Notes: generated by a model not told the origin, from the sequence alone. DNA of 64,000 nt from Patescibacteria group bacterium (GCA_041662665.1 JBAZSC010000001.1:513511-577510), one strand, 5' to 3'; positions 2,919 through 37,181 are shown, numbered from the stretch's first letter. Numbers and translations: made by a program.

Positions 2919-3007
2919 GCCCGGATGGCGAAAAGGCAGCCGCGCTGGGCTTAAAACCCGGTGGTCCTGAACCAACCGTGCGGGTTCGAATCCCGCTCCG
3001 GGCACCA
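2919..3007 (+). tRNA. tRNA-Leu (anticodon UAA), type II long variable arm, CCA encoded
   Basis: Acceptor GCCCGGA/TCCGGGC, anticodon stem CTGGG/CCCGG with loop CTTAAAA, long variable arm, T-arm GCGGG-TTCGAAT-CCCGC, discriminator A, CCA. Confidence 0.85.
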
Positions 3008-3037: not shown

Positions 3038-3078
3038 TTGTCCAAATTTTTTGTTCAGTTGCTAATCGAATATCAATA

Positions 3079-3231
3079 CTGATTTGAAACTCGGTTTTCG
3101 AAAAAACCGAGTTTCGCGTGTTGACTGTAACACTACGAAACTCGGTTTTTGTGCAAAGCAATATTTTATTTTATCTAAATAAACTATTTAAAAAATACAC
3201 TAATCTTTCTTTACCCATAAAACCGAGTTTC
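3079..3231. repeat. Right arm of 153-bp inverted repeat flanking the tRNA operon
   Basis: Reverse complement of 2497-2649; contains the same palindromic 12-mers. Confidence 0.8.
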
Positions 3232-3287
3232 TATTCGAGCGATTTGTGGCCTTAAGGCATTCGTGAGATTAGTAATGTAAAAAGAGT

Positions 3288-6282: not shown

Positions 6283-6400
6283 TATCAATTTTACAATTTA
6301 CAATAAATTACCAATTTACAATTTTCAAATTATGGTTTTCTGCTTGAAAATTGGTTATTGAAAATTTATTGTAAATTGATAATTGGAAATTGAAAATTTT
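6283..6400. repeat. Long imperfect AT-rich intergenic palindrome built from TTGTAAATTG/CAATTTACAA motifs
   Basis: Arms at 6286-6335 and 6350-6400 are mutual reverse complements with mismatches. The same motif family forms the palindrome at 14105-14225. Confidence 0.5.
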
Positions 6401-8512: not shown

Positions 8513-8541
8513 TTGACAGCAAAGGCTAAAAGTGCTATATT
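8513..8541 (+). promoter_or_regulatory. Promoter module 2: TTGACA, 17-nt spacer, TATATT
   Basis: Homologous to module 1, including the downstream ...TAAATAAGCCAAAAAAAC / ...TAAAATAACCAAAAAAC tails. Confidence 0.45.
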
Positions 8542-8619
8542 TATACGTCGATAAATAGACATCTAAAATAACCAAAAAACTGAATTATATGCATTTCATG
8601 AGGGAGATTTATCCGTTAA

Positions 8620-8647
8620 TTCGCATATTCGTAGATTAGCATAAATT
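8620..8647 (+). promoter_or_regulatory. Conserved promoter/operator element, copy 1: TTCGCA, 16-nt spacer, TAAATT; spacer contains GTAGATTAGC
   Basis: Shared with 11157-11225 and 20104-20201; immediately upstream of the ATG at 8669. Confidence 0.5.
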
Positions 8648-8668
8648 CGTATATTTGTATTATATATT

Positions 8669-9820
8669 ATGAAAATAGCTTTTATAGGACAAAAAGGAAT
8701 ACCAGCTAAATCTGGCGGTGTCGAAAGACACGTTGAGGATTTAGCCACTAGATTGGCAAAACAAGGCCATGAAGTTTTTGTATACACAAGACCAAATTAT
8801 ACTGATCCAAATATTAAGTTTTACAAAAACGTCAAATTGGTATCTTTGCCTTCAATAAACTCAAAAAACTTTGATGCTATTTCTCATACCTTAATTTCAA
8901 CATTTCACGCTATATTTCAAAAATACGATATTATTCATTATCAAGGTGTTGGACCATCAACTTTAGCATTTATTGCTAGATTATTTACAAAATCAAAAAT
9001 TATCTCAACTTTTCACTGCCAAGATCAATACCATCAAAAATGGGGTTGGTTTGCAAAATTATATTTAAAATTTGGTGAATTCGCTGCATGTAAATTTCCT
9101 CACCAAACTATTGTTGTCTCAAAAATTATTAGACAAATTGCTAAAGAAAGATTTAATACCGAAGCTATCTATATTCCAAATGGTATTAACTTTTTAGATC
9201 TTAAAAATCAAAATAGCAATATTTTACAAAAATTCAATTTGGAACAAAATAAATATATTTTGACTGTTGGCCGTTTAGTAAAGCACAAAGGCATTCATTA
9301 TTTAATTGATGCTTTCAATAAAATCCAAACTGACAAAAAATTAGTAATTGTCGGTGATTCAGCATGTTCTGATGATTATGTTGAATTTATTAAAGAAAAA
9401 GCAAAAAGCAACCCAAACATTATTTTAACTGGTGCTGTTTTTGGTAAAGATTTACATACATTATATAAAAATGCTTATTTATATGTTCAGCCATCAGAAG
9501 CTGAAGGTTTGCCAACTACAGTATTGGAAGCAATGAGTCATGGAAGATGTGTTCTTGTTTCAAACATTCCAGAAAATATTGAAGCTTTCGCTGGATTTGG
9601 ATATTTATTCATGAACAAAAATGTTGATGACTTAGCTTCAAAATTAGAAATCTTAAATCAAAGAACTGATTTGATTATGGAAAAAGGTGAAAAAGCAAAA
9701 ACTTACGCTTTAGAAAATTACAATTGGGACATTTTAAGTCTTCAAACAGAAATTTTGTATGAAAAAACTCTTCAAAATAGAGAAGAGTTATCTTTCAGTT
9801 TGCGTAAAATCGAAATCTAG
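8669..9820 (+). CDS. Glycosyltransferase family 4
   Basis: MKIAFIGQKGIPAKSGGVERHVEDLATRLAKQGHEV... (GT4 N-domain); C-terminal Glycos_transf_1 region (SEAEGLPTTVLEAMSHG). Confidence 0.8.
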   Translation: MKIAFIGQKGIPAKSGGVERHVEDLATRLAKQGHEVFVYTRPNYTDPNIKFYKNVKLVSLPSINSKNFDAISHTLISTFHAIFQKYDIIHYQGVGPSTLAFIARLFTKSKIISTFHCQDQYHQKWGWFAKLYLKFGEFAACKFPHQTIVVSKIIRQIAKERFNTEAIYIPNGINFLDLKNQNSNILQKFNLEQNKYILTVGRLVKHKGIHYLIDAFNKIQTDKKLVIVGDSACSDDYVEFIKEKAKSNPNIILTGAVFGKDLHTLYKNAYLYVQPSEAEGLPTTVLEAMSHGRCVLVSNIPENIEAFAGFGYLFMNKNVDDLASKLEILNQRTDLIMEKGEKAKTYALENYNWDILSLQTEILYEKTLQNREELSFSLRKIEI

Positions 9821-10067: not shown

Positions 10068-10096
10068 GTAGCGACAGGGCAGTGCCCTGTCGCTAC
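10068..10096. promoter_or_regulatory. 29-bp perfect palindrome GTAGCGACAGGGCA-G-TGCCCTGTCGCTAC, 18 nt upstream of the rmlC-like start
   Basis: Identical element (central base complemented) at 17818-17846. Confidence 0.6.
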
Positions 10097-10113
10097 GAAA
10101 TAAATAAAATTTT

Positions 10114-10593
10114 ATGATTCAAGGTGTCAAAATCAAACAGTTAATAATTCGTAAAGACAAACCAGATCTAGATCAGAAAAAAGTTAAACCAGGACATTTG
10201 CTAGAAATTTTAAGATCTGATGACAAATTATTAACAAAATTCGGACAAACAATTTTTACTGTTGCTTATCCTGGTACAATCAAAGCTTTTCATTGGCACA
10301 AAAAACAAGACGATCTTTGGTTTTTCGCGACTGGCAAGGCAACTATTGTATTGTATGATACTCGCAAAAAATCAAAAACTTTTGGCGAGACTCAAGTAAT
10401 TGAATGCAACACTGAAACAGATCCAAAATTAGTATTAATTCCAATCGGTGTTGCTCATGGCTACAAAGCTCAAGGTAAAAAACCAGTTATGCTTTTTTAT
10501 CATACAACAAAACCATATAATGCTAAAAATCCAGATGAGCAAAGACTTCCATACAATGATCCAAAAATCGGATTCAATTGGAATAAAATATAA
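10114..10593 (+). CDS. rmlC: dTDP-4-dehydrorhamnose 3,5-epimerase-like cupin
   Basis: Cupin with KAFHWHK (compare RGLHFQ) and C-terminal NDPKIGFNW (compare NDPxLxIxW). Located with rmlB, rmlD and rmlA. Confidence 0.6.
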   Translation: MIQGVKIKQLIIRKDKPDLDQKKVKPGHLLEILRSDDKLLTKFGQTIFTVAYPGTIKAFHWHKKQDDLWFFATGKATIVLYDTRKKSKTFGETQVIECNTETDPKLVLIPIGVAHGYKAQGKKPVMLFYHTTKPYNAKNPDEQRLPYNDPKIGFNWNKI

Positions 10594-10690: not shown

Positions 10691-11155
10691 ATGATATCGA
10701 TAGATCAAAATCTAATTTCACAAACCTTAGAACAGGCAAAGGATAATCCTCGTCATCGACAAATTTTTCGTTTTCACAAATTAAAAGAACCAGTTCAGAG
10801 AATGCTCAATGCTTTATTGCCAGACAGCTATGCTAGACCGCATTACCATTCTGACAAGCCAGAAGTATTTATAATTTTAAAAGGCAAATTAGCAATTATA
10901 AAATTTAATAAGCAAGGAAAAATAATTCAGCAAGAAATAATTAAAAGTTCAGGTCCAAATTTTGGCGTTGAAATAAAACCTAAAGAATGGCATAGTATTG
11001 TTGCTTTAATTCCATCTGTTGTATACGAAATTAAAAAAGGACCATATATTAAAAAGACTGACAAAGTTTTTGCCAAATGGGCGCCTGAAGAAAACACTGA
11101 TGAAGGACAAAAATATTTAAAAAAACTTAAAAATATAATACGAATATACAAATAA
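10691..11155 (+). CDS. WbuC-family cupin fold metalloprotein
   Basis: About 150 aa cupin with the YARPHYH motif; typical of WbuC proteins in O-antigen clusters. Confidence 0.55.
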   Translation: MISIDQNLISQTLEQAKDNPRHRQIFRFHKLKEPVQRMLNALLPDSYARPHYHSDKPEVFIILKGKLAIIKFNKQGKIIQQEIIKSSGPNFGVEIKPKEWHSIVALIPSVVYEIKKGPYIKKTDKVFAKWAPEENTDEGQKYLKKLKNIIRIYK

Positions 11156-11156
11156 T

Positions 11157-11225
11157 GCTAATCTACAAAAATACGAATTCGCATATTCGTTGATTAGCAT
11201 AAATTTATAGATTCGTATCACACTA
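11157..11225 (+). promoter_or_regulatory. Conserved promoter/operator element, copy 2 (GCTAATCTAC...ACGAAT/ATTCGT...GATTAGC nested inverted repeats; TTCGCA, 16-nt spacer, TAAATT; ...ATTCGTATCACACTA-ATG)
   Basis: Aligns with copies at 8620-8668 and 20104-20201. Confidence 0.55.
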
Positions 11226-11636
11226 ATGAAGAAATGCATTTTCTGTCAAATTGCAAAAAAAGAATTGCCGTCAGATATAATTTTTGAAAATAAAAATGTG
11301 ATGGCAATTTTAGATATTATGCCAGTAAATCTAGGCCATGTTTTAGTTATTCCAAAAAAACATTTTGCTACAATGGTCGATGTTCCAGATAAATTATTAC
11401 AGGAAATGATTGTGGTTTCCAAAAAAGTTGGCAAAGCAATTATGAAAGGTCTGAAAGTAAAAGGTTTTAATTTAAGTACAAGCAATGGTAGAGTTGCTGG
11501 ACAAAAAATTGATCACGTCCATTTTCATCTTATTCCAAGATTTGCAAATGATGGTTTAAAATTATGGCCACAAAGACAAGGATATAGAGCAACTGAAGCT
11601 GAAAAAATTGTTAAAAAAATTAAGAGCAAACTTTAG
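11226..11636 (+). CDS. HIT-family (histidine triad) nucleotide hydrolase/transferase
   Basis: HVHFHLIPR histidine-triad motif. Confidence 0.8.
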   Translation: MKKCIFCQIAKKELPSDIIFENKNVMAILDIMPVNLGHVLVIPKKHFATMVDVPDKLLQEMIVVSKKVGKAIMKGLKVKGFNLSTSNGRVAGQKIDHVHFHLIPRFANDGLKLWPQRQGYRATEAEKIVKKIKSKL

Positions 11637-11719
11637 AAAACAGGAAATAGAAAACAGAAAACAGGTGTGGTCGTTAACTTTTTTCTCTTTTCTATTTTCT
11701 ATTAACTATTTCTAATCAT

Positions 11720-13273: not shown

Positions 13274-14104
13274 ATGAAAATATTAATAACCGGCGCTCGT
13301 GGCATGTTAGGCCAAGATTTATGTTCTCTTTTAGAAAAAGAACATGAAATAATAAAATATGATCGCGAAGAATTAGATATTACAAATGCAGAAATGGTTG
13401 ACGAAGTTCTGCCAAAATTAAATCCAAATGCAGTTATAAATTGTGCTGCTTTTACTGATGTTGATGGTTGTGAAGAACAAACAAAAAAAGAAATTGCCAT
13501 GAAAGTTAATGGCTATGGACCAGGAAATCTAGCCAAAGCTTGTGCAAAATTAGACATCCCATTTTTTCATTACAGCACAGATTATATTTTTAATGGCCAA
13601 GAAAAAAATGGCTATAAAGAAGATTATGACAAAATAGATCCAATCAATGCTTATGGCGAAACAAAAGCATTGGGTGAAAAATTAATTAAAGAAAATTGTA
13701 CAAAATATTATATTTTAAGAACAGCCTGGCTTTATGGAAAATTAGGCAAAAATTTTGTTGACACAATGTTGCAATTAGCTCAAAAAAATGATAATTTAAG
13801 GGTAGTCAACGATCAGCACGGCAAGCCAACTTTTACTTTAGATTTAGCCAAAAGAACAAAAGAAATTCTGGATCAAAAAGTGAAGCCAGGAATATATCAT
13901 GTAACCAATGAAGGAGAAGCGAGTTGGTACGATTTTGCTAACGAAATTTTCAAAATTAAAGGCGTAAAAATAAAAGTTACGCCATGCAAAACTTCTGAAT
14001 TTCCAAGGAAAGCTATAAGACCAGAATATTCCGCATTAATAAATACTAAATTACCGGCAATGAGAAAATGGCAAGAGGCGTTAGCCGAGTATTTAGCAAA
14101 CTAA
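13274..14104 (+). CDS. rmlD: dTDP-4-dehydrorhamnose reductase
   Basis: MKILITGARGMLG...; YSTDYIFNG motif; 276 aa. Confidence 0.8.
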   Translation: MKILITGARGMLGQDLCSLLEKEHEIIKYDREELDITNAEMVDEVLPKLNPNAVINCAAFTDVDGCEEQTKKEIAMKVNGYGPGNLAKACAKLDIPFFHYSTDYIFNGQEKNGYKEDYDKIDPINAYGETKALGEKLIKENCTKYYILRTAWLYGKLGKNFVDTMLQLAQKNDNLRVVNDQHGKPTFTLDLAKRTKEILDQKVKPGIYHVTNEGEASWYDFANEIFKIKGVKIKVTPCKTSEFPRKAIRPEYSALINTKLPAMRKWQEALAEYLAN

Positions 14105-14225
14105 TTTTCAATTATCAATAATCAATTTACAATAAATTTTCAATTCACAATTCTCAATGAGCTGTTTGTAAATTAGTTCATTGGAAATTGATTGAAAATT
14201 GGAAATTGTAAATTGAAAATTAAAT
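14105..14225. repeat. Long imperfect AT-rich intergenic palindrome of the TTGTAAATTG/CAATTTACAA family
   Basis: Arms at about 14108-14160 and 14170-14222; shares motifs with 6283-6400. Confidence 0.45.
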
Positions 14226-17812: not shown

Positions 17813-17817
17813 TTCAC

Positions 17818-17846
17818 GTAGCGACAGGGCACTGCCCTGTCGCTAC
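17818..17846. promoter_or_regulatory. Second copy of the 29-bp perfect palindrome (central base C), 9 nt upstream of the epimerase start
   Basis: GTAGCGACAGGGCA-C-TGCCCTGTCGCTAC; the reverse complement of the copy at 10068-10096. Confidence 0.6.
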
Positions 17847-17855
17847 CAAAACATT

Positions 17856-18785
17856 ATGAAAATATTAGTCACAGGCGGTGCAGGCTTCATTGGCTCGCAC
17901 ATTGTCGATAAATTAATAGCAGAAAATAATGAAGTTGTTGTTATTGATAATTTATCAACTGGCAAAAAAGAAAATTTAAACAACAAAGCAAAATTTTATC
18001 AAGCTGATATCAAAAATTTTGAAGATGTAGAAAAAGTATTTGAGCAAGAAAAACCAGAATATATTTGTCACCAAGCAGCTCATGCCTCAGTTTCAGAATC
18101 AGTCAAAGATCCAATTTATGATGCTGAAAATAATATTTTAGGATCAATAAATATTATAAAATTAGCAATCAAATATAATATTAAAAAAATAGTTTTCGCT
18201 TCAACAGGTGGCGCAATGTATGGCGATGCTGAAATTATTCCAACGCCTGAAAAATCAGAAACAAAGCCGGTTTCTCCATATGCTGTTACAAAGCTTGCAG
18301 TTGAAAAATATTTATATTGCTTCAATTTTTTAAATAAGTTAAACTATACTATTCTACGCTATGCAAATGTTTATGGCCCAAAACAAGATCCATTTGGTGA
18401 GGCTGGAGTAGTTGCAATTTTTAGCCAAAAAATAGTTAATAATGAACAGCCAATAATCAACGGCGATGGCAAATACACTAGAGATTATGTTTATGTTACA
18501 GACATCGCAAATGCAAATTTATTGGCATTGAAAAGTGAAAAATCGCAAAATATTTACAATGTAGGAACTGGAATAGAGACAGATGTTAATACAATTTTCC
18601 AGAATTTATCTAAAATTTCTGGAAAAAATATTCCTGAAAAACATGGTGAAGCAAGAAAGGGTGATCATAGAAAAGGTGCAATCGATTCAACAAAAATTAA
18701 GCAAGAATTAAATTGGCAACCAACAGTTAAATTAGAAGATGGTTTGAAAGAAACATATAAATGGTTTTCGAACTTAAAATCCTAA
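17856..18785 (+). CDS. NAD-dependent sugar-nucleotide epimerase (UDP-glucose 4-epimerase-like)
   Basis: [20 protein letters not shown]...; YAVTKLAVEKY (YxxxK). Confidence 0.7.
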   Translation: MKILVTGGAGFIGSHIVDKLIAENNEVVVIDNLSTGKKENLNNKAKFYQADIKNFEDVEKVFEQEKPEYICHQAAHASVSESVKDPIYDAENNILGSINIIKLAIKYNIKKIVFASTGGAMYGDAEIIPTPEKSETKPVSPYAVTKLAVEKYLYCFNFLNKLNYTILRYANVYGPKQDPFGEAGVVAIFSQKIVNNEQPIINGDGKYTRDYVYVTDIANANLLALKSEKSQNIYNVGTGIETDVNTIFQNLSKISGKNIPEKHGEARKGDHRKGAIDSTKIKQELNWQPTVKLEDGLKETYKWFSNLKS

Positions 18786-18917
18786 GCACTAAATCCTAAA
18801 TACTAAACAAATCCAAATTACTAAAACTCAAATTTTCAAAGGTCGCAACATTGTTTTATATTTTGTAAATTAGAATTTTGAATTTGTTTTGAGTTTAGTA
18901 TTTAGGATTTAGTGCTT
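18784..18917. repeat. About 134-bp imperfect palindrome with perfect 25-bp terminal arms (AAGCACTAAATCCTAAATACTAAAC / GTTTAGTATTTAGGATTTAGTGCTT)
   Basis: Between the epimerase stop and metK; candidate terminator or structured element. Confidence 0.55.
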
Positions 18918-18955
18918 TCTAATCTAAATTAATTTTAACAAGTCAAAAATAAAAC

Positions 18956-20104
18956 ATGAATAAGTACATCTTTACATCAGAGTCAGTAACAGAGGGACAT
19001 CCTGACAAAGTAGCAGATCAAATTTCAGACTCAATTCTGGATGAATTATTAAAACAAGATCCAGATTCAAGAGTCGGCTGTGAAACACTAGTCACAACTG
19101 GATTAGTTGTTGTTGCAGGCGAAATTACAACCAAGGCATATGTTGATATTGCAAAGATAGCAAGAAAAACAGTTAAAGAAATCGGTTACAACAAGCATGA
19201 ATATGGTTTTCATCATGAAGATTGTGGTGTTGTCGTAAGTATAGATGAACAAAGTCCAGACATTGCCATGGGTGTTGATAAAACTAAAAAGAAAAAACAA
19301 GGAGCAGGCGATCAAGGCTTGATGTTTGGTTATGCGACAAATGAAACAGAAGAATTAATGCCATTGCCAATTATTTTGGCTCACAAGCTTTGCCAAAAAT
19401 TAGCAGAAGTAAGAAAAAATGGGACTTTAAATTATTTAAGACCAGATGGAAAATCAGAAGTTGCTGTAGAATATGAAGACAATAAACCAAAAAGAGTTAA
19501 TACAATTGTTATTGCAGCTCAACATGATGAAGATATAAAATTAAGCCAAATAAAAAAAGATATTATTGAAAAAGTTATTAAACCAGTTTGCGGTAATTGG
19601 TTAACTAGAAAAACAAAATTCTTTGTTAATGCTACTGGTAAATTTGTTAAGGGCGGACCTCCAGCTGATTGCGGTTTAACTGGCCGAAAAATAATTGTTG
19701 ATACTTATGGTGGTCATGGAAGTCATGGTGGAGGCTGTTTTTCAGGTAAAGATCCATCAAAAGTTGATCGTTCAGGTAGCTACATGGCAAGATATATTGC
19801 CAAAAATATTGTTGCATCTGGAATAGCAGAAAGATGTGAAATTCAAATCGCTTATGTCATTGGTGTTGCTGAGCCAATTAGTATTTTAGTTAATACTCAC
19901 AACACTTCAAAAATCAGCAATGAACAGATTGAAAAAATAATTCGACAAGTTTTCGATCTAACTCCAGAAGGAATTATTGAAACATTGAAATTGAAACGTC
20001 CAATCTACAAAAAAACAGCAGCTTATGGACATTTTGGTCGCAAAGACAAAGATTTCACTTGGGAAAAAACGGATAAGGTAAAAGAAATCAAGAAATTAAT
20101 TTAA
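18956..20104 (+). CDS. metK: S-adenosylmethionine synthetase (bacterial MetK type)
   Basis: ...[15 protein letters not shown]..., GGGAFSGKDP-type region ([19 protein letters not shown]); 382 aa. Confidence 0.95.
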
Positions 20105-20201
20105 TACAAATCTACGAATTTTATGCTAATCTACGAAAATACGAATGCGCCGATTCGCATATTTGTAGATTAGCATATATTCGTAAATTCGTATCACACT
20201 T
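20104..20201 (+). promoter_or_regulatory. Conserved promoter/operator element, copy 3 (GCTAATCTAC-N...-GTAGATTAGC inverted repeat; TTCGCA, 16-nt spacer, TATATT; ...ATTCGTATCACACTT-ATG)
   Basis: Longest copy. Contains a GCGCCG insertion and a duplicated ATTCGTA segment relative to copy 2. Confidence 0.55.
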
Positions 20202-21518
20202 ATGAAAATCGCAGTTGTCGGCACTGGTTACGTTGGCTTAGTCACTGGTGCATGTTTGGCAAAAGTAGGTCACACAATTACTTGTGTAGATATAGATAAA
20301 AATAAAATTGCCAGATTAAAAAAAGGCATTATTCCAATCTATGAGCCAGGCTTGGACAAAGTTGTCAAAGAAGTAATAAAAAAGAACAAGCTTAGTTTTG
20401 ATATTTCATTAAAAAATGTTTTAAGCGAAGTGCAAGCTGTATTTATTGCAGTCGGCACTCCAGCCAGAAAAGATGGCAAAGCTGATCTAAAATATGTTTT
20501 TGACGTTGCAAAAGAAGTAGGTGAAACCTTGGCCGCCGAAGCCAGCAGGCGAAGGCGGCAGGATTATAAAGTCATTATTAATAAAAGCACAGTACCAGTT
20601 GGAACAGCAAAAGAAGTCACAAATATTATTGCAAAATATTATAAAGGCGAATTTGCTGTTGTCTCAAATCCAGAATTTTTGAAAGAAGGCTATGCAGTTG
20701 ATGATTTTATGAAGCCAGACCGAATTGTCGTTGGCACTTCTTCCAAAAAAGCTAAGAAAATAATGCAAGAAATTTATAAACCTGTAAAAGGTAAAAAAGT
20801 TTTTACGGAAGTGCAAAGTTCAGAGATGATTAAGTATGCATCAAATGCTTTTCTAACAACCAAAATTTCTTTTATCAATGAAATAGCAAATCTTTGCGAA
20901 TTAGTCGGTGCTGATGTAAAAGAAGTTTCCTTTGGAATGGGATTAGACAAAAGAATTGGCAAGAGTTTTTTGAACGCTGGAATTGGTTATGGTGGTTCCT
21001 GTTTTCCAAAGGACACTACAGCCTTAAATCAAATTGCTGGTACAAAAGGTTATGATTTTAAATTGCTAAAGGCAGTTATTGAAGTTAATTCAAAGCAAAG
21101 AAAATACGTCATTGATAAATTAGAACAAGTTTTCGGCAATTTAAAAAATAAAAGAATCGCAGTTTTGGGCTTAGCTTTCAAAAATAATACCGATGATGTT
21201 AGAGAATCAGCTTCGATAGATATTATCAGAATGTTGACCGGAGTTGGCGCAAGAGTAAAAGCCTATGATCCAAAAGCAAATGATAACGCAAAAGAAATTT
21301 TAAATTCTGGAGTTAAAATTACTAATGATCCATACGAAGCAATAAAAAATTCAGACGCATTAGTAATTGCAACAGAATGGCCAGAATTTGCTAATTTAGA
21401 TTTTGATAAAATCAAAACATTATTAAAAAAGCCAATCATAATTGATGGCCGAAATTTGTTAAATTCTGTTATAATAAAAAAACTCGGCTTTCAGTATTAT
21501 GGAATTGGCCGAGCTTAA
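20202..21518 (+). CDS. ugd: UDP-glucose 6-dehydrogenase
   Basis: MKIAVVGTGYVGLVTGACLA...; catalytic GGSCFPKD; 438 aa. Confidence 0.9.
   Translation: MKIAVVGTGYVGLVTGACLAKVGHTITCVDIDKNKIARLKKGIIPIYEPGLDKVVKEVIKKNKLSFDISLKNVLSEVQAVFIAVGTPARKDGKADLKYVFDVAKEVGETLAAEASRRRRQDYKVIINKSTVPVGTAKEVTNIIAKYYKGEFAVVSNPEFLKEGYAVDDFMKPDRIVVGTSSKKAKKIMQEIYKPVKGKKVFTEVQSSEMIKYASNAFLTTKISFINEIANLCELVGADVKEVSFGMGLDKRIGKSFLNAGIGYGGSCFPKDTTALNQIAGTKGYDFKLLKAVIEVNSKQRKYVIDKLEQVFGNLKNKRIAVLGLAFKNNTDDVRESASIDIIRMLTGVGARVKAYDPKANDNAKEILNSGVKITNDPYEAIKNSDALVIATEWPEFANLDFDKIKTLLKKPIIIDGRNLLNSVIIKKLGFQYYGIGRA
20527..20562. repeat. GC-rich REP-like element inserted in frame within ugd (encodes LAAEASRRRRQD)
   Basis: GGCCGCCGAAGCC-AGCA-GGCGAAGGCGGC matches the intergenic motif at 2453-2479. 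A GC-rich patch in an otherwise AT-rich CDS; reading frame preserved. Confidence 0.6.
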
Positions 21519-22058: not shown

Positions 22059-22095
22059 AATAAACTAAGTAAAACAATTAAATTTTGTAAGTAGT

Positions 22096-22135
22096 GTCCG
22101 CATATTCCGCGTAAGTTCCGCGTATTTCCGCGCAA
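22096..22135. repeat. Four tandem 10-bp direct repeats (..TTCCGCGTA..) in the promoter region of the minus-strand gene 21636..22058
   Basis: GTCCGCATAT TCCGCGTAAG TTCCGCGTAT TTCCGCGCAA; helical-turn periodicity. Confidence 0.6.
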
Positions 22136-25242: not shown

Positions 25243-28200
25243 ATGAGACAAACAGCATTAATGTTTTTGTTGTCCTTGTATTTTGTTGGTTGTATTGCAG
25301 AGTTGGCACCTGCTGATGAAAAGAATGGAAAGAATCTTTGTGATGAAAATGCACGTTGCTCTGATGGCTATACTTGTGTTTGCAACATGAATAATCATTC
25401 CAAGATTTGCGTGAAGAATCCGAATGCTGAAATGATTTTGGCAAACAAGTCTACTGTCTGTGAAGAGACTATGTCTGACACCGGACCCGATGCTGAAGCT
25501 GACGCCGAAGTTGGAACAAGCGCTGATATCGACGCTGATTCTAACGCTGAAGCGGACGCTGAAGTCGGAACGCCTGATGAAGATTCGACGACTGATACAG
25601 ATGCCAACGCTTCTACCGATGTCGAGCCTGATGAAGGCAACGATGTTGGTAATGACGCTCAGCCTGATGTCTCGCCTGACAATGGAACCGATCTCGGTTC
25701 TGATGTCGGTGAAGATGTTCCTTGTATTCCCGCAACCGAAATCTGTGATGGCGTTGACAATGACTGCGATAGCTATACTGACGAAGATTTCAACAATCTG
25801 AATCAGTCCTGTTCTGTCGGACTCGGTTTGTGTGAGAACGAAGGCGTTTACGTTTGTAGTACCGATAGAAGCACAACTGTTTGTAATGTTGCAGCTTTTC
25901 AAGCTTATCCTGAAGAATGTGATGACATGGACAACGACTGCGATGGCCAAACTGACGAAGATTTGGTTGGCTGTTGCGACGTTGACGCTGTTCAGGAATG
26001 CGGATCTGATGTTGGGGAATGTGTGAAGGGCGAGATGACTTGTCAGGAAGATGGCAGTTGGGGCGACTGTGAAAACGCTGTTGGTCCGACTGTTGATCTT
26101 TGCGACAGTCTTGACAATGACTGTGATGGCGCAACTGACGAGGATTTTCTGAATCGAGGGATGGAATGCCAGATTGGTCAAGGCAACTGTCTTTCTAATG
26201 GCAATTATGCTTGTACTGAAGATATGTTTGGAACTTTCTGTGCAGCTCTGATCATCCAGCCGTCCAATGAGGCTTGCGATCAGCAGGATAATGACTGCGA
26301 TGGCGCAACTGATGAGGACTTGGTTGGATGTTGCGAGCCTAACGATCAGGTCGAATGCGGATCCGCTGTCGGCGAATGCCGTAAGGGTCACAAGACTTGT
26401 TCGATTGATGGTGTGTGGAGCGAATGTCTTGAAGAAGTGAAGCCAATGGCTGAACTTTGTGATGGCAAGGATAACAACTGCGACGGTCAGACAGATGAAA
26501 CCTTTGCTAATCTGAACAGCGAATGTCAGATTGGGCGTGGTGAATGTCTGTCGATTGGTCGCATGACTTGCGGTGTTGATCAGCAGTCAACGTCTTGTAA
26601 TGCAGATATCCTCACCGGCAACGATGAGATCTGTGATAACAAAGATAATGACTGCGATGGCGATGTTGACGAAAATCTGCTGCGTGAATGTGGCAGTGAC
26701 GTCGGTGAATGTGAGATCGGTATCCAATCTTGTTTTGCTGGTGGCTGGCTTGCCTGCGAAGGTGAGATTCAGTCGAGCGACGAGATTTGTGATAACCTTG
26801 ATAACAATTGCGACGGTAATACAGATGAAGGTTTCAACATCAACGATCAATGCTTTGAAGGTCTTGGCGAATGCCAGGCTGAAGGCGTGATCGTTTGTGT
26901 TGATGAGAATATGAGTGCTTGCAATGCAGTTGTCGGTCAGCAGTCGGAAGAGACATGCGATGGCTTGGACAACGATTGCGATGGCAATACAGATGAAGAG
27001 TTGGAAAATTGTTGTATTCCTGATACCATTTCCGAATGCGGTATTGACACTGGCGAATGTGTGAAGGGAACTTCCACTTGCCAGGCAGACCGTACTTGGG
27101 GTTGGTGTTTGGATGCAACTGGACCATCGGATGAAATCTGCGATGGATTGGATAACAACTGCGATGGCGAAACAGACGAAGGTTTGACTGGTTGTTGCTC
27201 ACCTTCCGTTTCTCGCAACTGCGGATCTGATGTGGGCGAATGCTCTCATGGGACGCAGATTTGCTGGGAAAGCCGTGAGTGGGGCGAATGCCAGAATCAG
27301 ACTTTGCCTGCAAATGAAATCTGCGATGGACTTGACAATGACTGCGATGGCCAGACAGACAATGGATTCGACCTCATGGCTGAAGCCAATAACTGCGGCC
27401 AATGCAATTATGTTTGTGGCAGTCAGGGGACAGTGAGTACTACTTGCGAAGCAGGTGAGTGCGTTCTGACGTGCAGCCGCTTCCGAGTTGATTTGAACAC
27501 TGATCCGACTGACGGCTGTGAATGTGAAGTCACCAATTGCGGTGTGGAAATCTGCGATCAGGTGGACAACGATTGTGATGGTGCAATTGACGAAGACTGT
27601 GATTCTCTCGTCATGTACCTGAGCTTCGATGGACACATGAATGATGGATCTACCAATGCCAACAACGCTCTCAACCATGGCGCCACTTACACTGCTGATG
27701 CAGTTTGTGGCCAGGCAGCATCGTTCGACGGAGTCGACGATTATGCCGAAGTGGCTGATAGCGTGAGCATGGATTCGATTGTGAATGAGTTTACGATTTG
27801 CGTTTCAGCAAATGTGACTGATTACGAAAGAGGTGATGTTGTATTCTCAAAGTTTAGGCTGCAACCAGCACTTGGAATCGAATGGAACGATGTAACTATG
27901 GAAAACAACTGGACATTCTTTTTAAACCGAGTAAAGCTTGCTCAGGGAAGAACTGTTAATGTGAATCAGTGGATTACTTTCTGTGGGAAATTCAAGCAAG
28001 GAGTTTTTACTGCATACATTGATGGCGAACAAATTTGGCAAGGTAATGCTCAAAACCCAGTTGGCGGTATTACCTATATTGGGTCTAACGATATGCCACC
28101 AGCCAAGAACAGCCACACAAAGATTGATGAGACTACATTTTATAACGTTGCACTTTCCGATGAGGAAATCCAGCACTACTTTGAAATCATGAAACGCTAG
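25243..28200 (+). CDS. Large secreted (lipo)protein with 11 MopE-like/TSP3-like Cys-rich Ca-binding repeats (CDGxDNDCDGxTDE) and a C-terminal LamG/concanavalin-A-like domain
   Basis: Strong SD, signal peptide with ...YFVGC. N-terminal acidic DAEADAEVGT repeats. Eleven copies of C-D-x-x-D-N-D-C-D-G-x-x-D-E alternate with two types of Cys-knot-like spacers. C-terminal LSFDG...DGSTNANNALNHGAT...ASFDGVDDYAEV is the LamG_3 signature. GC about 45-50%. Confidence 0.7.
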   Translation: MRQTALMFLLSLYFVGCIAELAPADEKNGKNLCDENARCSDGYTCVCNMNNHSKICVKNPNAEMILANKSTVCEETMSDTGPDAEADAEVGTSADIDADSNAEADAEVGTPDEDSTTDTDANASTDVEPDEGNDVGNDAQPDVSPDNGTDLGSDVGEDVPCIPATEICDGVDNDCDSYTDEDFNNLNQSCSVGLGLCENEGVYVCSTDRSTTVCNVAAFQAYPEECDDMDNDCDGQTDEDLVGCCDVDAVQECGSDVGECVKGEMTCQEDGSWGDCENAVGPTVDLCDSLDNDCDGATDEDFLNRGMECQIGQGNCLSNGNYACTEDMFGTFCAALIIQPSNEACDQQDNDCDGATDEDLVGCCEPNDQVECGSAVGECRKGHKTCSIDGVWSECLEEVKPMAELCDGKDNNCDGQTDETFANLNSECQIGRGECLSIGRMTCGVDQQSTSCNADILTGNDEICDNKDNDCDGDVDENLLRECGSDVGECEIGIQSCFAGGWLACEGEIQSSDEICDNLDNNCDGNTDEGFNINDQCFEGLGECQAEGVIVCVDENMSACNAVVGQQSEETCDGLDNDCDGNTDEELENCCIPDTISECGIDTGECVKGTSTCQADRTWGWCLDATGPSDEICDGLDNNCDGETDEGLTGCCSPSVSRNCGSDVGECSHGTQICWESREWGECQNQTLPANEICDGLDNDCDGQTDNGFDLMAEANNCGQCNYVCGSQGTVSTTCEAGECVLTCSRFRVDLNTDPTDGCECEVTNCGVEICDQVDNDCDGAIDEDCDSLVMYLSFDGHMNDGSTNANNALNHGATYTADAVCGQAASFDGVDDYAEVADSVSMDSIVNEFTICVSANVTDYERGDVVFSKFRLQPALGIEWNDVTMENNWTFFLNRVKLAQGRTVNVNQWITFCGKFKQGVFTAYIDGEQIWQGNAQNPVGGITYIGSNDMPPAKNSHTKIDETTFYNVALSDEEIQHYFEIMKR

Positions 28201-29029: not shown

Positions 29030-29080
29030 TTGTTTGTATTAATTATTTTTTAAATTTATAAGTAATTTTAATTAATTTTT

Positions 29081-29131
29081 ATGCGTAAATTCTGCGTTTT
29101 CTGCGTTCGATTCTGCGTTAGTCTGCGTTAT
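29081..29131. repeat. Five tandem direct repeats of about 10 bp (..TCTGCGTT..) in the promoter region of the minus-strand gene 28295..29029
   Basis: ATGCGTAAAT TCTGCGTTTT CTGCGTTCGAT TCTGCGTTAG TCTGCGTTAT. Confidence 0.6.
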
Positions 29132-29200: not shown

Positions 29201-29785
29201 TTATGATTTAAGCTCAATAGTTGGAAAAGCTTTTATTTTACTAATCTTTTCATACTCGATATCACTTAGAATTCGATGACCTTTTAAAGTATCAACTAAA
29301 ACAATTATTTTTTCATCTAACTTTCTAATAATCAAAATAACATCACCCTTTGCAGAATCAATTTTATTGATCAAAGATTCTTCAACATGATCAATTTTAT
29401 TTGTTAATTCTTTTTTAATACCATCAACTTTAATATTTAATATTTCTAAATCTTCTTTTGTTGCGGTCTCTTCAAAACCTTTTGCAACCATTAATGCAAG
29501 TTCTGAAATTTTTTTATCGAATTTTTTATCAAGTCTTTTTTCTTGTTGATTAAAACCAATATCCATTTTTTTATCAAGTCTTTTTTCTTGTTGATTAAAA
29601 CCAATATCCATTTTTTTATCAAGTCTTTTTTCTTGTTCTTTAAAACCACTATCCATTTTTACGGATAATTTTTCAAACTTTGTAGATATCTTTTCAACCT
29701 TTGTAGATATCTTTTCAACTTTTGTGCCAAGCTTTTCAATCAATTTGGCCAAATCATTAATTGTAATTTCTTTTTTTATTTTCAT
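29201..29785 (-). CDS. Coiled-coil protein with perfect in-frame tandem DNA repeats (45 bp in 3 copies; 21 bp in 3 copies)
   Basis: Two perfect copies plus one variant of a 45-bp unit at about 29522-29655 encode FNQQEKRLDKKMDIG. A 21-bp unit at about 29668-29740 encodes KVEKIST. The internal Met (MKIKKE) is preferred as start. Confidence 0.5.
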   Translation of the reverse strand: MKIKKEITINDLAKLIEKLGTKVEKISTKVEKISTKFEKLSVKMDSGFKEQEKRLDKKMDIGFNQQEKRLDKKMDIGFNQQEKRLDKKFDKKISELALMVAKGFEETATKEDLEILNIKVDGIKKELTNKIDHVEESLINKIDSAKGDVILIIRKLDEKIIVLVDTLKGHRILSDIEYEKISKIKAFPTIELKS

Positions 29786-29863
29786 GAATTCAAAAATTTT
29801 ATCACCAAAATTATAACACATTTTTTCTAAGTCAACAAATATACTGTTGATAATAAATCAAAG

Positions 29864-37125: not shown

Positions 37126-37181
37126 AGTTTTAAAGTCCATAAAGTACTTTATAACTTTTTATTTTATAACTTTATAACTGT

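Follow-up and report, generated by a model that had tools for sequence, protein, structure and literature searches.

We analysed a 64,000-nucleotide stretch of DNA from a Patescibacteria group bacterium (JBAZSC010000001.1:513511-577510; hereafter the window, G+C content 31.5%), in which a nearly identical sequence block directly precedes the start codons of three genes. Pfam identifies these as genes for a GT4 glycosyltransferase, a HIT-family protein and UDP-glucose dehydrogenase (ugd). We consider it probable, though well short of certain, that each of the three sites is a copy, without the gene, of a single portable, promoter-bearing junction cassette that occurs throughout Patescibacteria (the candidate phyla radiation, CPR). 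In type it would resemble the REPINs (doublets of repetitive extragenic palindromic, or REP, sequences) and the MITEs (miniature transposable elements with inverted repeats) of other bacteria. The blocks belong to a family with a common anatomy and a wide distribution; full-length members enclose a gene for a GxxExxY nuclease, sites turn over among close relatives, and copies within one sample are nearly identical to each other. Such a cassette would in addition supply promoter activity, be mobile, and be served by the nuclease.

The cassette in the window and across Patescibacteria

A profile of the repeat arm detects exactly five arms in the window, distributed over the three sites as one, two and two, with none further at E<0.8. 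Site 1 is a lone right arm on the plus strand (8619-8663; ATTCGCATATTCGTAGATTAGCATAAATTCGTATATTTGTATTAT; profile score 50.8), separated by the five nucleotides atatt from the GT4 gene ATG at 8669. At site 2, a left arm on the minus strand (11135-11177; score 39.7), the mirror image of the right arm, abuts a right arm on the plus strand (11178-11221; score 52.4) at a loop-free GAA|TTC centre, and acta leads from the right arm to the HIT gene ATG at 11226. Site 3 pairs a left arm on the minus strand (20102-20146; score 50.3) with a right arm on the plus strand (20153-20197; score 53.9) around the 6-nt loop GCGCCG (20147-20152), which occupies the position held by the GxxExxY gene in full-length relatives. 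The right arm of site 3, identical to that in the metagenome contig L068, is followed by actt and the ugd ATG at 20202. Sites 2 and 3 are 87-96-bp imperfect palindromes, and site 1 is without a mirror arm. Both left arms reach into the gene upstream: that of site 2 encodes the end of a DUF6016 gene, namely its final four codons (RIYK) and TAA stop (11153-11155), and the TAA stop of metK (20102-20104) falls inside the outer end (TAATAC) of the left arm of site 3. The block consensus at the three sites is ATTCGCATATTCGTAGATTAGCATAAATTCGTAGATTCGTAT(T/C)A(T/C), ending 4-5 nt 5' of the ATG; allowing up to three mismatches, the 24-mer TTCGCATATTCGTAGATTAGCATA matches the window four times, versus no match in 100 shuffles.

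Each right arm contains two promoter-like hexamers separated by a 16-nt spacer, namely TTCGCA (8620-8625) and TAAATT (8642-8647) at site 1, TTCGCA (11178-11183) and TAAATT (11200-11205) at site 2, and TTCGCA (20154-20159) and TATATT (20176-20181) at site 3, the last two arms ending in GTATCAC. The initial annotation had reported a near-identical element ahead of these three start codons, with the hexamer pattern TTCGCA, 16 nt, TA(A/T)ATT and the same gene identities; our analysis agrees on each of these points, and the promoter reading of the hexamers is plausible. Other parts of that description apply less widely. The leader lacking a Shine-Dalgarno sequence is present at all three sites, but the tail GTATCACACT(A/T)ATG is found at sites 2 and 3 and not at site 1; similarly, the nested inverted repeats exist at sites 2 and 3, whereas site 1 has the right arm only. 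An occurrence of GCTAATCTAC at 445-454 was considered as a further cassette and rejected, as it forms the extended -10 of an ordinary promoter-like site (TTGACA-17-TGcTAATCT; 425-453) upstream of the gene at 531.

The 23-nt pattern TTCGYATWTTYGTWGATTAGCAT fits all five window arms and identified 16 loci in a collection holding one genome per species. Among the labels of these genomes are Staskawicz-, Nealson-, Roizman-, Moran- and Saccharibacteria, Microgenomates and unclassified Patescibacteria. With the pattern slightly narrowed, 77 metagenome contigs matched, and the loci overall are mostly from Patescibacteria. No viral contig matched the narrowed pattern, and carriage by phages was rejected on that absence. 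The match in L012, a Lachnospiraceae genome, looks like chance, being a bare 23-mer within coding sequence whose flanks have no similarity to an arm. Locus L007, labelled as Gammaproteobacteria, has a complete and typical cassette, so the label of that bin is doubtful.

A profile search over all retrieved DNA gave 137 non-redundant arms at 95 sites, of which 38 are back-to-back palindromes (inverted doublets) with loops of 0 to ~32 nt. Palindromes with two arms measure ~87-115 bp across the family; eight have the perfect 12-bp centre TGCGAA|TTCGCA, and the loops of the others are variable. More than one copy may occupy a single stretch, as with the three sites of the window, or the full-length copy L014 and the empty palindrome L018 on contig MHPK01000006.1. 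Literature searches on the sequence strings, on Patescibacteria promoters and repeats, and on GxxExxY and PF13366 found no description of the element. The RNA-guided TIGR-Tas repressors of CPR bacteria were considered as a link and dropped, as we saw no evidence tying them to the arms.

Column statistics over all arms resolve an arm of ~45 bp into five 8-bp units (ATTnGyAk), in the order ATTCGCAT, wTTyGTAG, ATTAGCAT, a 2-3-nt linker, ATTyGTAG, ATTnGyAT and then TAT. Within every unit the TT, G and A positions are near-invariant, indicating that conservation follows the period of the unit and not a pair of operator half-sites. Arms that do not face a gene are conserved as well as those that do.

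The position of the arms relative to coding sequences is equally regular. At 52 of the 95 sites the start of an open reading frame (ORF) of at least 60 codons falls 40-60 nt from TTCGCA, the distances peaking sharply at 50-51 nt, and an ORF start in this interval is seen for 38% of arms versus 7.2% of random positions. Between the terminal hexamer YATNAY and the downstream ATG there are 3-7 nt (mostly 4-5), or, in a smaller class, the two overlap as TATT-ATG. On the far side the incoming ORF ends within a few nucleotides of the arm, and in 15 arms exactly in the terminal ATAAT(A/G). The palindrome fills the entire stop-to-start spacer, its far arm often providing the stop codon of the upstream gene, and the flanking genes are co-directional for 23 of 27 classifiable palindromes. 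Single arms stand at the same distance from the ATG as palindrome arms (site 1, L004, L081 and L048), and lone arms are found in both orientations relative to transcription, including reversed and next to stop codons.

The genes downstream of the cassette are diverse. Those confirmed by Pfam encode Hsp70, Hsp20, L6, RpoA, triosephosphate isomerase (TIM), SecY, L13, Cpn10 and an M16 peptidase. By eye we also recognized L31, L35, S5, S14, S17, L7/L12, GatC, MutM, an HtrA-like protease, Frr, HisRS, SerRS, Pgk, SSB, RNase H, a RecJ-like protein, GalU, GT4 and Ugd. Some families recur in different genomes (GT4 three times; Ugd, L6, L31, GroES and Hsp20 twice each), and a number of palindromes lie within operons, as between rplJ and rplL and at the S14, L6, S5 and SecY junctions.

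Turnover, a candidate promoter and the GxxExxY gene

Four syntenic relatives (L104-L107), obtained through Ugd homologues of 86%, 84% and 75% identity, show how the three junctions have changed. In L104 and L105 the junction between the DUF6016 and HIT genes is 14 nt long and armless. L106 lacks the DUF6016 gene and its HIT gene begins 3 nt after the preceding gene, again with no arm corresponding to site 2. Across residues 1-150 the DUF6016 proteins share 84% identity, and it is only in their final four residues that they diverge; together with the armless 14-nt junction, this indicates that the cassette at site 2 replaced ~29 nt in the lineage of the window. The metK-ugd junction holds different repeats in the four relatives, and in L106 and L107 four TCAGCGTT units abut the ugd ATG (L106 9955-9998; L107 6555-6590). 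Of the window's arms only that of site 1 is shared, with L106, where 41 of 45 positions are identical at the same place and the adjoining spacer is not conserved.

Copies within a single sample give a second view of turnover. Six cassettes of 113 bp from one sample are 88-99% identical (93% overall), loop included, unlike arms from different genomes, which are ~78% identical. The six occupy six different junctions and may face either way; their ends are sharp (ATAATAC...GTATTAT), and the sequences flanking them are unrelated. As judged from sequence, this near-identity points to copying or homogenisation within a genome.

Retention of the -10-like hexamer differs with the orientation of the arm. 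TAnnnT is found 16-18 nt after TTCGCA in 42 of 56 gene-facing arms (75%) versus 38 of 80 others (47.5%), giving an odds ratio of 3.3 (p 0.0015, an optimistic value given that related sequences are not independent). It is plausible that the arm contains a promoter (TTCGCA, 16-17 nt, TAAAAT-like) that would give the gene a ~15-20-nt leader with no Shine-Dalgarno sequence. In favour of such a promoter, at L042 the divergent ribosomal genes rpmE and rpsB are separated by essentially one cassette alone, and at L005 a single arm separates another divergent pair (SpoU and GxxExxY). An alternative in which the terminal TATTAT acts as the -10 of a leaderless mRNA was rejected, as this word is only 3-7 nt before the ATG and overlaps it in one class. 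At site 1, a canonical sigma-70-like promoter (TTGACA-17-TGcTATATT; 8513-8541, plus strand; an 11/12 match with TG) lies ~80 nt upstream of the arm, in a block that L106 has kept. Should this promoter be active, the arm would be transcribed as the closing part of the 5' untranslated region (UTR) of the GT4 gene. That gene probably does not depend on the arm alone for a promoter.

In the full-length form of the element, a gene of 124-130 aa encoding a GxxExxY protein of the PD-(D/E)XK group sits exactly between two outward-facing arms. This arrangement was found at 12 of the 12 distinct loci examined, nine of them ascertained through their arms and three chosen from homologues. The nine arm-ascertained loci have arms 400-870 bp apart enclosing a 128-aa ORF, whose start is 1-15 nt from the inner end of one arm and whose stop is just short of the other. 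The remaining three provide a test free of this ascertainment, as the homologues were picked by protein search and their contigs taken without reference to arms; in all three, diverged arms flank the gene in the same outward orientation. In L096 and L097 (20 kb each), the pair flanking the GxxExxY gene are the sole arms. Some full-length copies contain extra cargo, and at L005 a SpoU gene and the GxxExxY gene diverge from a single arm.

The enclosed ORF scores above the curated cut-offs of two profiles, with 82 bits to TIGR04256 (cut-off 35) and 83.8 bits to PF13366, PDDEXK_3 (cut-off 22). The catalytic residues E30, D69, E79 and K81 are invariant across 43 homologues. The predicted structure (pLDDT, the predicted local distance difference test score, 88.7) shares only its core with lambda exonuclease, Cas4 and AddAB, as is generic for PD-(D/E)XK proteins, and no sequence relative of GxxExxY was found among solved structures. 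The family is given as "unknown" in PMC3424549. A conserved run of genes recurs in related Parcubacteria, encoding TraG-like, Pgk, DHH/RecJ-like, NYN and RNase H proteins (L096 10433-15564; also L053, L075, L014, L076 and L024), and the junction in this run that is occupied by the GxxExxY element or a lone arm changes from genome to genome. On their reverse strand, 103 of the 137 arms read TGnTAnnnT, an inward-directed, extended -10-like word; as a speculation, this word could drive the GxxExxY gene.

A second small ORF between inverted repeats was observed in L097. There, 58-nt inverted repeats (8541-8598 and 8930-8987; 76% complementary) surround an ORF of the four-helix-bundle 23S_rRNA_IVP family, located between Polysacc_synt and GT2 genes, with the downstream arm reaching the next ATG. 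The layout is that of the GxxExxY element; the ORF and the arm family differ.

Taken as a portable and non-polar junction element, the cassette would come and go at gene junctions and be homogenised there. Each arm would carry an outward sigma-70-like promoter that equips the downstream gene with the short leader described above, and the ends of the cassette would supply stop codons. With an outward promoter and stop-providing ends, the cassette could sit between genes without polarity, so that insertion within an operon need not silence the downstream gene. The GxxExxY nuclease is the candidate enzyme that would recognise the arms and copy the element. We also advance, as a tentative idea that may well prove wrong, a broader proposal in which GxxExxY proteins are site-specific nucleases that recognise the 8-bp-unit arms and copy or home cassettes. 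They would then define a new, nuclease-driven class of REPIN-like elements that plants promoters at junctions, and, by extension, the four-helix-bundle ORFs of 23S rRNA intervening sequences (IVS) would be the cargo of a sister class.

Several results weigh against a mobile, promoter-bearing cassette. The arm's own promoter hexamers match only 8 of 12 consensus positions, below the threshold of our scan, and the consensus promoter scan did not exceed background in this AT-rich DNA (83 matches versus 67 expected). Where lone arms have room on their upstream side, ordinary promoter-like sites can be seen by eye ahead of them. The origin of the six near-identical copies in a single genome is assumed. 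A target-site duplication was sought at these six copies, and no flanking direct repeat was seen; nor was a clean empty site found, ~29 nt having been replaced at site 2 and not simply interrupted. The 128-aa PD-(D/E)XK protein, the candidate for a mobilising role, is not a known transposase. Identity over 23 nt across lineages at class or phylum level is unusual for selfish DNA and could instead reflect a conserved host factor. Lastly, conservation of the site 1 arm in situ beside a conserved canonical promoter suggests a host function or gene conversion.

Competing explanations and related elements

The main rival explanation is a host regulatory module, in which a conserved DNA-binding protein of Patescibacteria controls highly expressed housekeeping genes through the arms, these being promoter/operator arrays or else alternative-sigma promoters. 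GxxExxY would then be a separate, homing-endonuclease-like parasite that inserts at the TGCGAA|TTCGCA centre and uses the arms as homology. We judge this rather unlikely. Deep primary-sequence conservation across lineages, with a periodicity suggestive of protein contacts, is what such a module would predict, but the arm facing away from the gene is conserved equally well. The over-representation of ribosomal and chaperone genes downstream, the recurrence of the same families in different genomes and the retention of the -10 in gene-facing arms fit a regulatory role, whereas lone arms lying reversed beside stop codons do not. Turnover also cuts both ways: at site 1 the arm is conserved in L106 and the neighbouring spacer is not, but the HIT and ugd junctions are armless in close relatives. 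The separate-parasite component would account for the perfect centre of eight palindromes and the variable loops of the rest, yet in L096 and L097 arms occur only around the GxxExxY gene, as expected if arms travel with it. In addition, several further families of palindrome in the window, different in sequence, fill stop-to-start spacers in the same way; a separate regulator for each would be too many for a ~0.65-Mb genome, and no regulator gene was found in the window.

An element acting at the RNA level is a poorer fit, and we think there is little chance that it is correct. Under this explanation a transcribed hairpin would be cut by RNase III or would stabilise mRNA, much like those rRNA intervening sequences whose loop contains an ORF, or the gene-proximal arm would be a 5'-UTR signal replacing the Shine-Dalgarno sequence. 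The predicted hairpins are very stable (-21 kcal/mol, z -4.7, at site 2; -36.8 kcal/mol, z -7.2, at site 3) and palindromes lie within operons, as at rplJ-rplL. However, complementarity between the two arms of a palindrome does not exceed that between arms taken across genomes (identity 0.784 within palindromes versus 0.780 between genomes, permutation p 0.33), so pairing is not kept by compensatory change, and a hairpin under structural selection was rejected on this comparison; from its sequence, each arm is constrained as primary sequence. The canonical promoter upstream of the site 1 arm, which probably places that arm in a 5' UTR, the tight arm-to-ATG distance and the missing Shine-Dalgarno sequence would suit a 5'-UTR signal. 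Against these stand the single arms of site 1, L004, L081 and L048, which cannot form a hairpin and keep the same distance, and lone arms that point with transcription or against it. In favour of the explanation, the 23S_rRNA_IVP ORF of L097 is another small ORF looped between long inverted repeats. A known structured RNA family was rejected for want of an Rfam match at threshold: at gathering score Rfam recognised only two tRNAs in the window, and relaxed searches returned only generic miRNA-type hairpin models, at no more than 32 bits versus cut-offs of at least 70.

The reading proposed in the initial annotation, a palindromic operator overlapping a promoter through which one dimeric transcription factor co-regulates three sugar-metabolism genes, is refuted for practical purposes. 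Nucleotide sugars or polysaccharide are substrates of all three downstream gene products, and promoter-like hexamers are flanked by inverted repeats at two sites; however, only three of the ~25 window genes that act on sugars or polysaccharide have the cassette, and because most window genes are sugar genes, three sugar targets out of three are close to the base rate. The annotation had named occurrence of the motif upstream of unrelated genes as grounds for abandoning a regulon, and our pattern search of genomes and metagenomes found just this: across many Patescibacteria the cassette also precedes genes for ribosomal proteins, chaperones, secretion, tRNA synthetases and glycolysis. In place of a short pair of half-sites there is a long imperfect palindrome of 8-bp sub-repeats. 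Measured from centre to centre, the presumed 10-bp half-sites of site 2 are 32 bp apart and those of site 3 are 40 bp apart, and site 1 has a single one, which does not accord with the geometry of a dimeric regulator. The arms of one palindrome do not co-vary and their conservation tracks the unit, orthologous HIT and ugd junctions in relatives lack the element, and the nearby transcription factor anticipated by the annotation did not appear, as Pfam found no DNA-binding domain in the 50 window ORFs scanned.

The portable cassette can be compared with several known systems. The REP/REPIN-RAYT systems (RAYT, REP-associated tyrosine transposase) of Enterobacteria and Pseudomonas consist of short intergenic inverted doublets in many copies, often within operons, together with an HUH/Y1 (IS200-like) transposase gene. 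The cassette shares with them the inverted doublets able to form hairpins, the multiple copies often inside operons, a partner gene that is itself flanked by inverted repeats, and copies that are more alike within a genome than between genomes. In contrast, its partner is a 124-130-aa PD-(D/E)XK protein of the GxxExxY family and not an HUH/Y1 transposase, its arms are tandem 8-bp units in place of a small hairpin and abut start and stop codons, and its sequence spans a superphylum where REPINs span one genus.

MITEs with outward promoters, such as the Correia elements of Neisseria, are ~100-150 bp long and have terminal inverted repeats. Like them, the cassette has terminal inverted repeats, lies near genes, would be co-transcribed and supply promoters, and is present or absent between strains; site 2, for example, which the window has, is missing from L104, L105 and L106. 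The gene-less cassette, under 500 bp with sharp ATAATAC...GTATTAT ends and no coding capacity, is MITE-like as well, and the GxxExxY element, which shares its ends, would be the candidate partner, although the protein is not a known transposase. We know of no related insertion sequence (IS) with a recognised transposase. Unlike MITEs, the cassette shows no TA or other target duplication and its arms are internally repetitive, and relative to Correia elements it has a far wider host range and no sequence similarity.

In 2012, Matus-Garcia, Nijveen and van Passel reportedly described putative mobile promoters, intergenic segments that carry a promoter and are homologous to one another although the genes downstream of them are not. 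The same promoter-containing segment ahead of unrelated genes, within and between genomes, is what the cassette would represent; its palindromic architecture, fixed start and stop junctions and associated nuclease gene set it apart. Intervening sequences of 23S rRNA may contain an ORF of the four-helix-bundle 23S_rRNA_IVP family. They resemble the cassette in having a long inverted repeat around a small ORF, and the 23S_rRNA_IVP ORF of L097 is likewise at an operon junction, but the cassette lies between protein genes and not in rRNA helices, its ORF is of another family, and its stems are predicted only. The CIRCE/HrcA system also has an inverted repeat beside chaperone promoters, and the word TTAGCA is common to both; CIRCE, however, has a 9-N9-9 structure and serves few chaperone operons, whereas the cassette has 45-bp arms, precedes many gene classes and is absent at orthologous junctions in relatives. 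The cassette thus fails the defining features of each nearest class, with no HUH transposase, no target duplication and no location in rRNA, and adds features of its own in the 8-bp-unit arms, the codon-exact junctions, the PD-(D/E)XK partner and sequence identity across the superphylum.

For the tiny genomes of Patescibacteria, these results mean that a shared upstream motif is possibly a portable repeat and not the mark of a regulon. Promoters in this group are barely characterised, and the arm offers a concrete candidate promoter with a short Shine-Dalgarno-less leader for many housekeeping genes. The position between repeat arms is the first genomic context for GxxExxY (TIGR04256/PF13366) and gives a testable hypothesis, that the protein binds or cleaves a specific DNA.

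Other repeats and genes of the window

The window contains further inverted repeats distinct from the cassette. A 165-nt inverted repeat (2495-2659 and 3069-3233; 86% complementary) surrounds the tRNA genes at 2826-2898 and 2919-3004, and smaller GAAACTCGGTTTT...AAAACCGAGTTTC hairpins lie inside its arms. Other long AT-rich palindromes, at 6285-6387, 14102-14222, 11640-11715, 18771-18930 and 37126-37181, also fill stop-to-start spacers. Their units are of the CAATTTAC type, the GAAAACAG type and others, all different from that of the cassette, and their predicted folding energies lie between -10 and -45 kcal/mol (z between -3.4 and -12). Those at 6285-6387 and 14102-14222 are related to each other, the latter ending 4 nt before the rmlA ATG.

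Shorter repeats also stand close to start codons. Two near-identical 30-nt G+C-rich hairpins, GTAGCGACAGGGCAGTGCCCTGTCGCTAC, with one loop base different (10068-10097 and 17817-17846), are 16 and 9 nt upstream of the ATGs at 10114 and 17856. Direct-repeat arrays with a period of 10-12 nt occur just upstream of genes, with ACGCGGAA in four copies at ~22093-22134 and ACGCAGAA in five at ~29072-29129. Within the minus-strand ORF at 29201-29821, three tandem 45-nt repeats (29504-29660) are 91-100% identical.

Two genes differ from their surroundings in composition. Those at 531-2331 and 25243-28200 are G+C-rich and have strong GGAGG ribosome-binding sites, among AT-rich neighbours without Shine-Dalgarno sequences. 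The first encodes Gly/Glu-rich repeats, and the second a protein of 985 aa with ~10 MopE-like Cys-rich repeats and a Laminin_G_3 domain.

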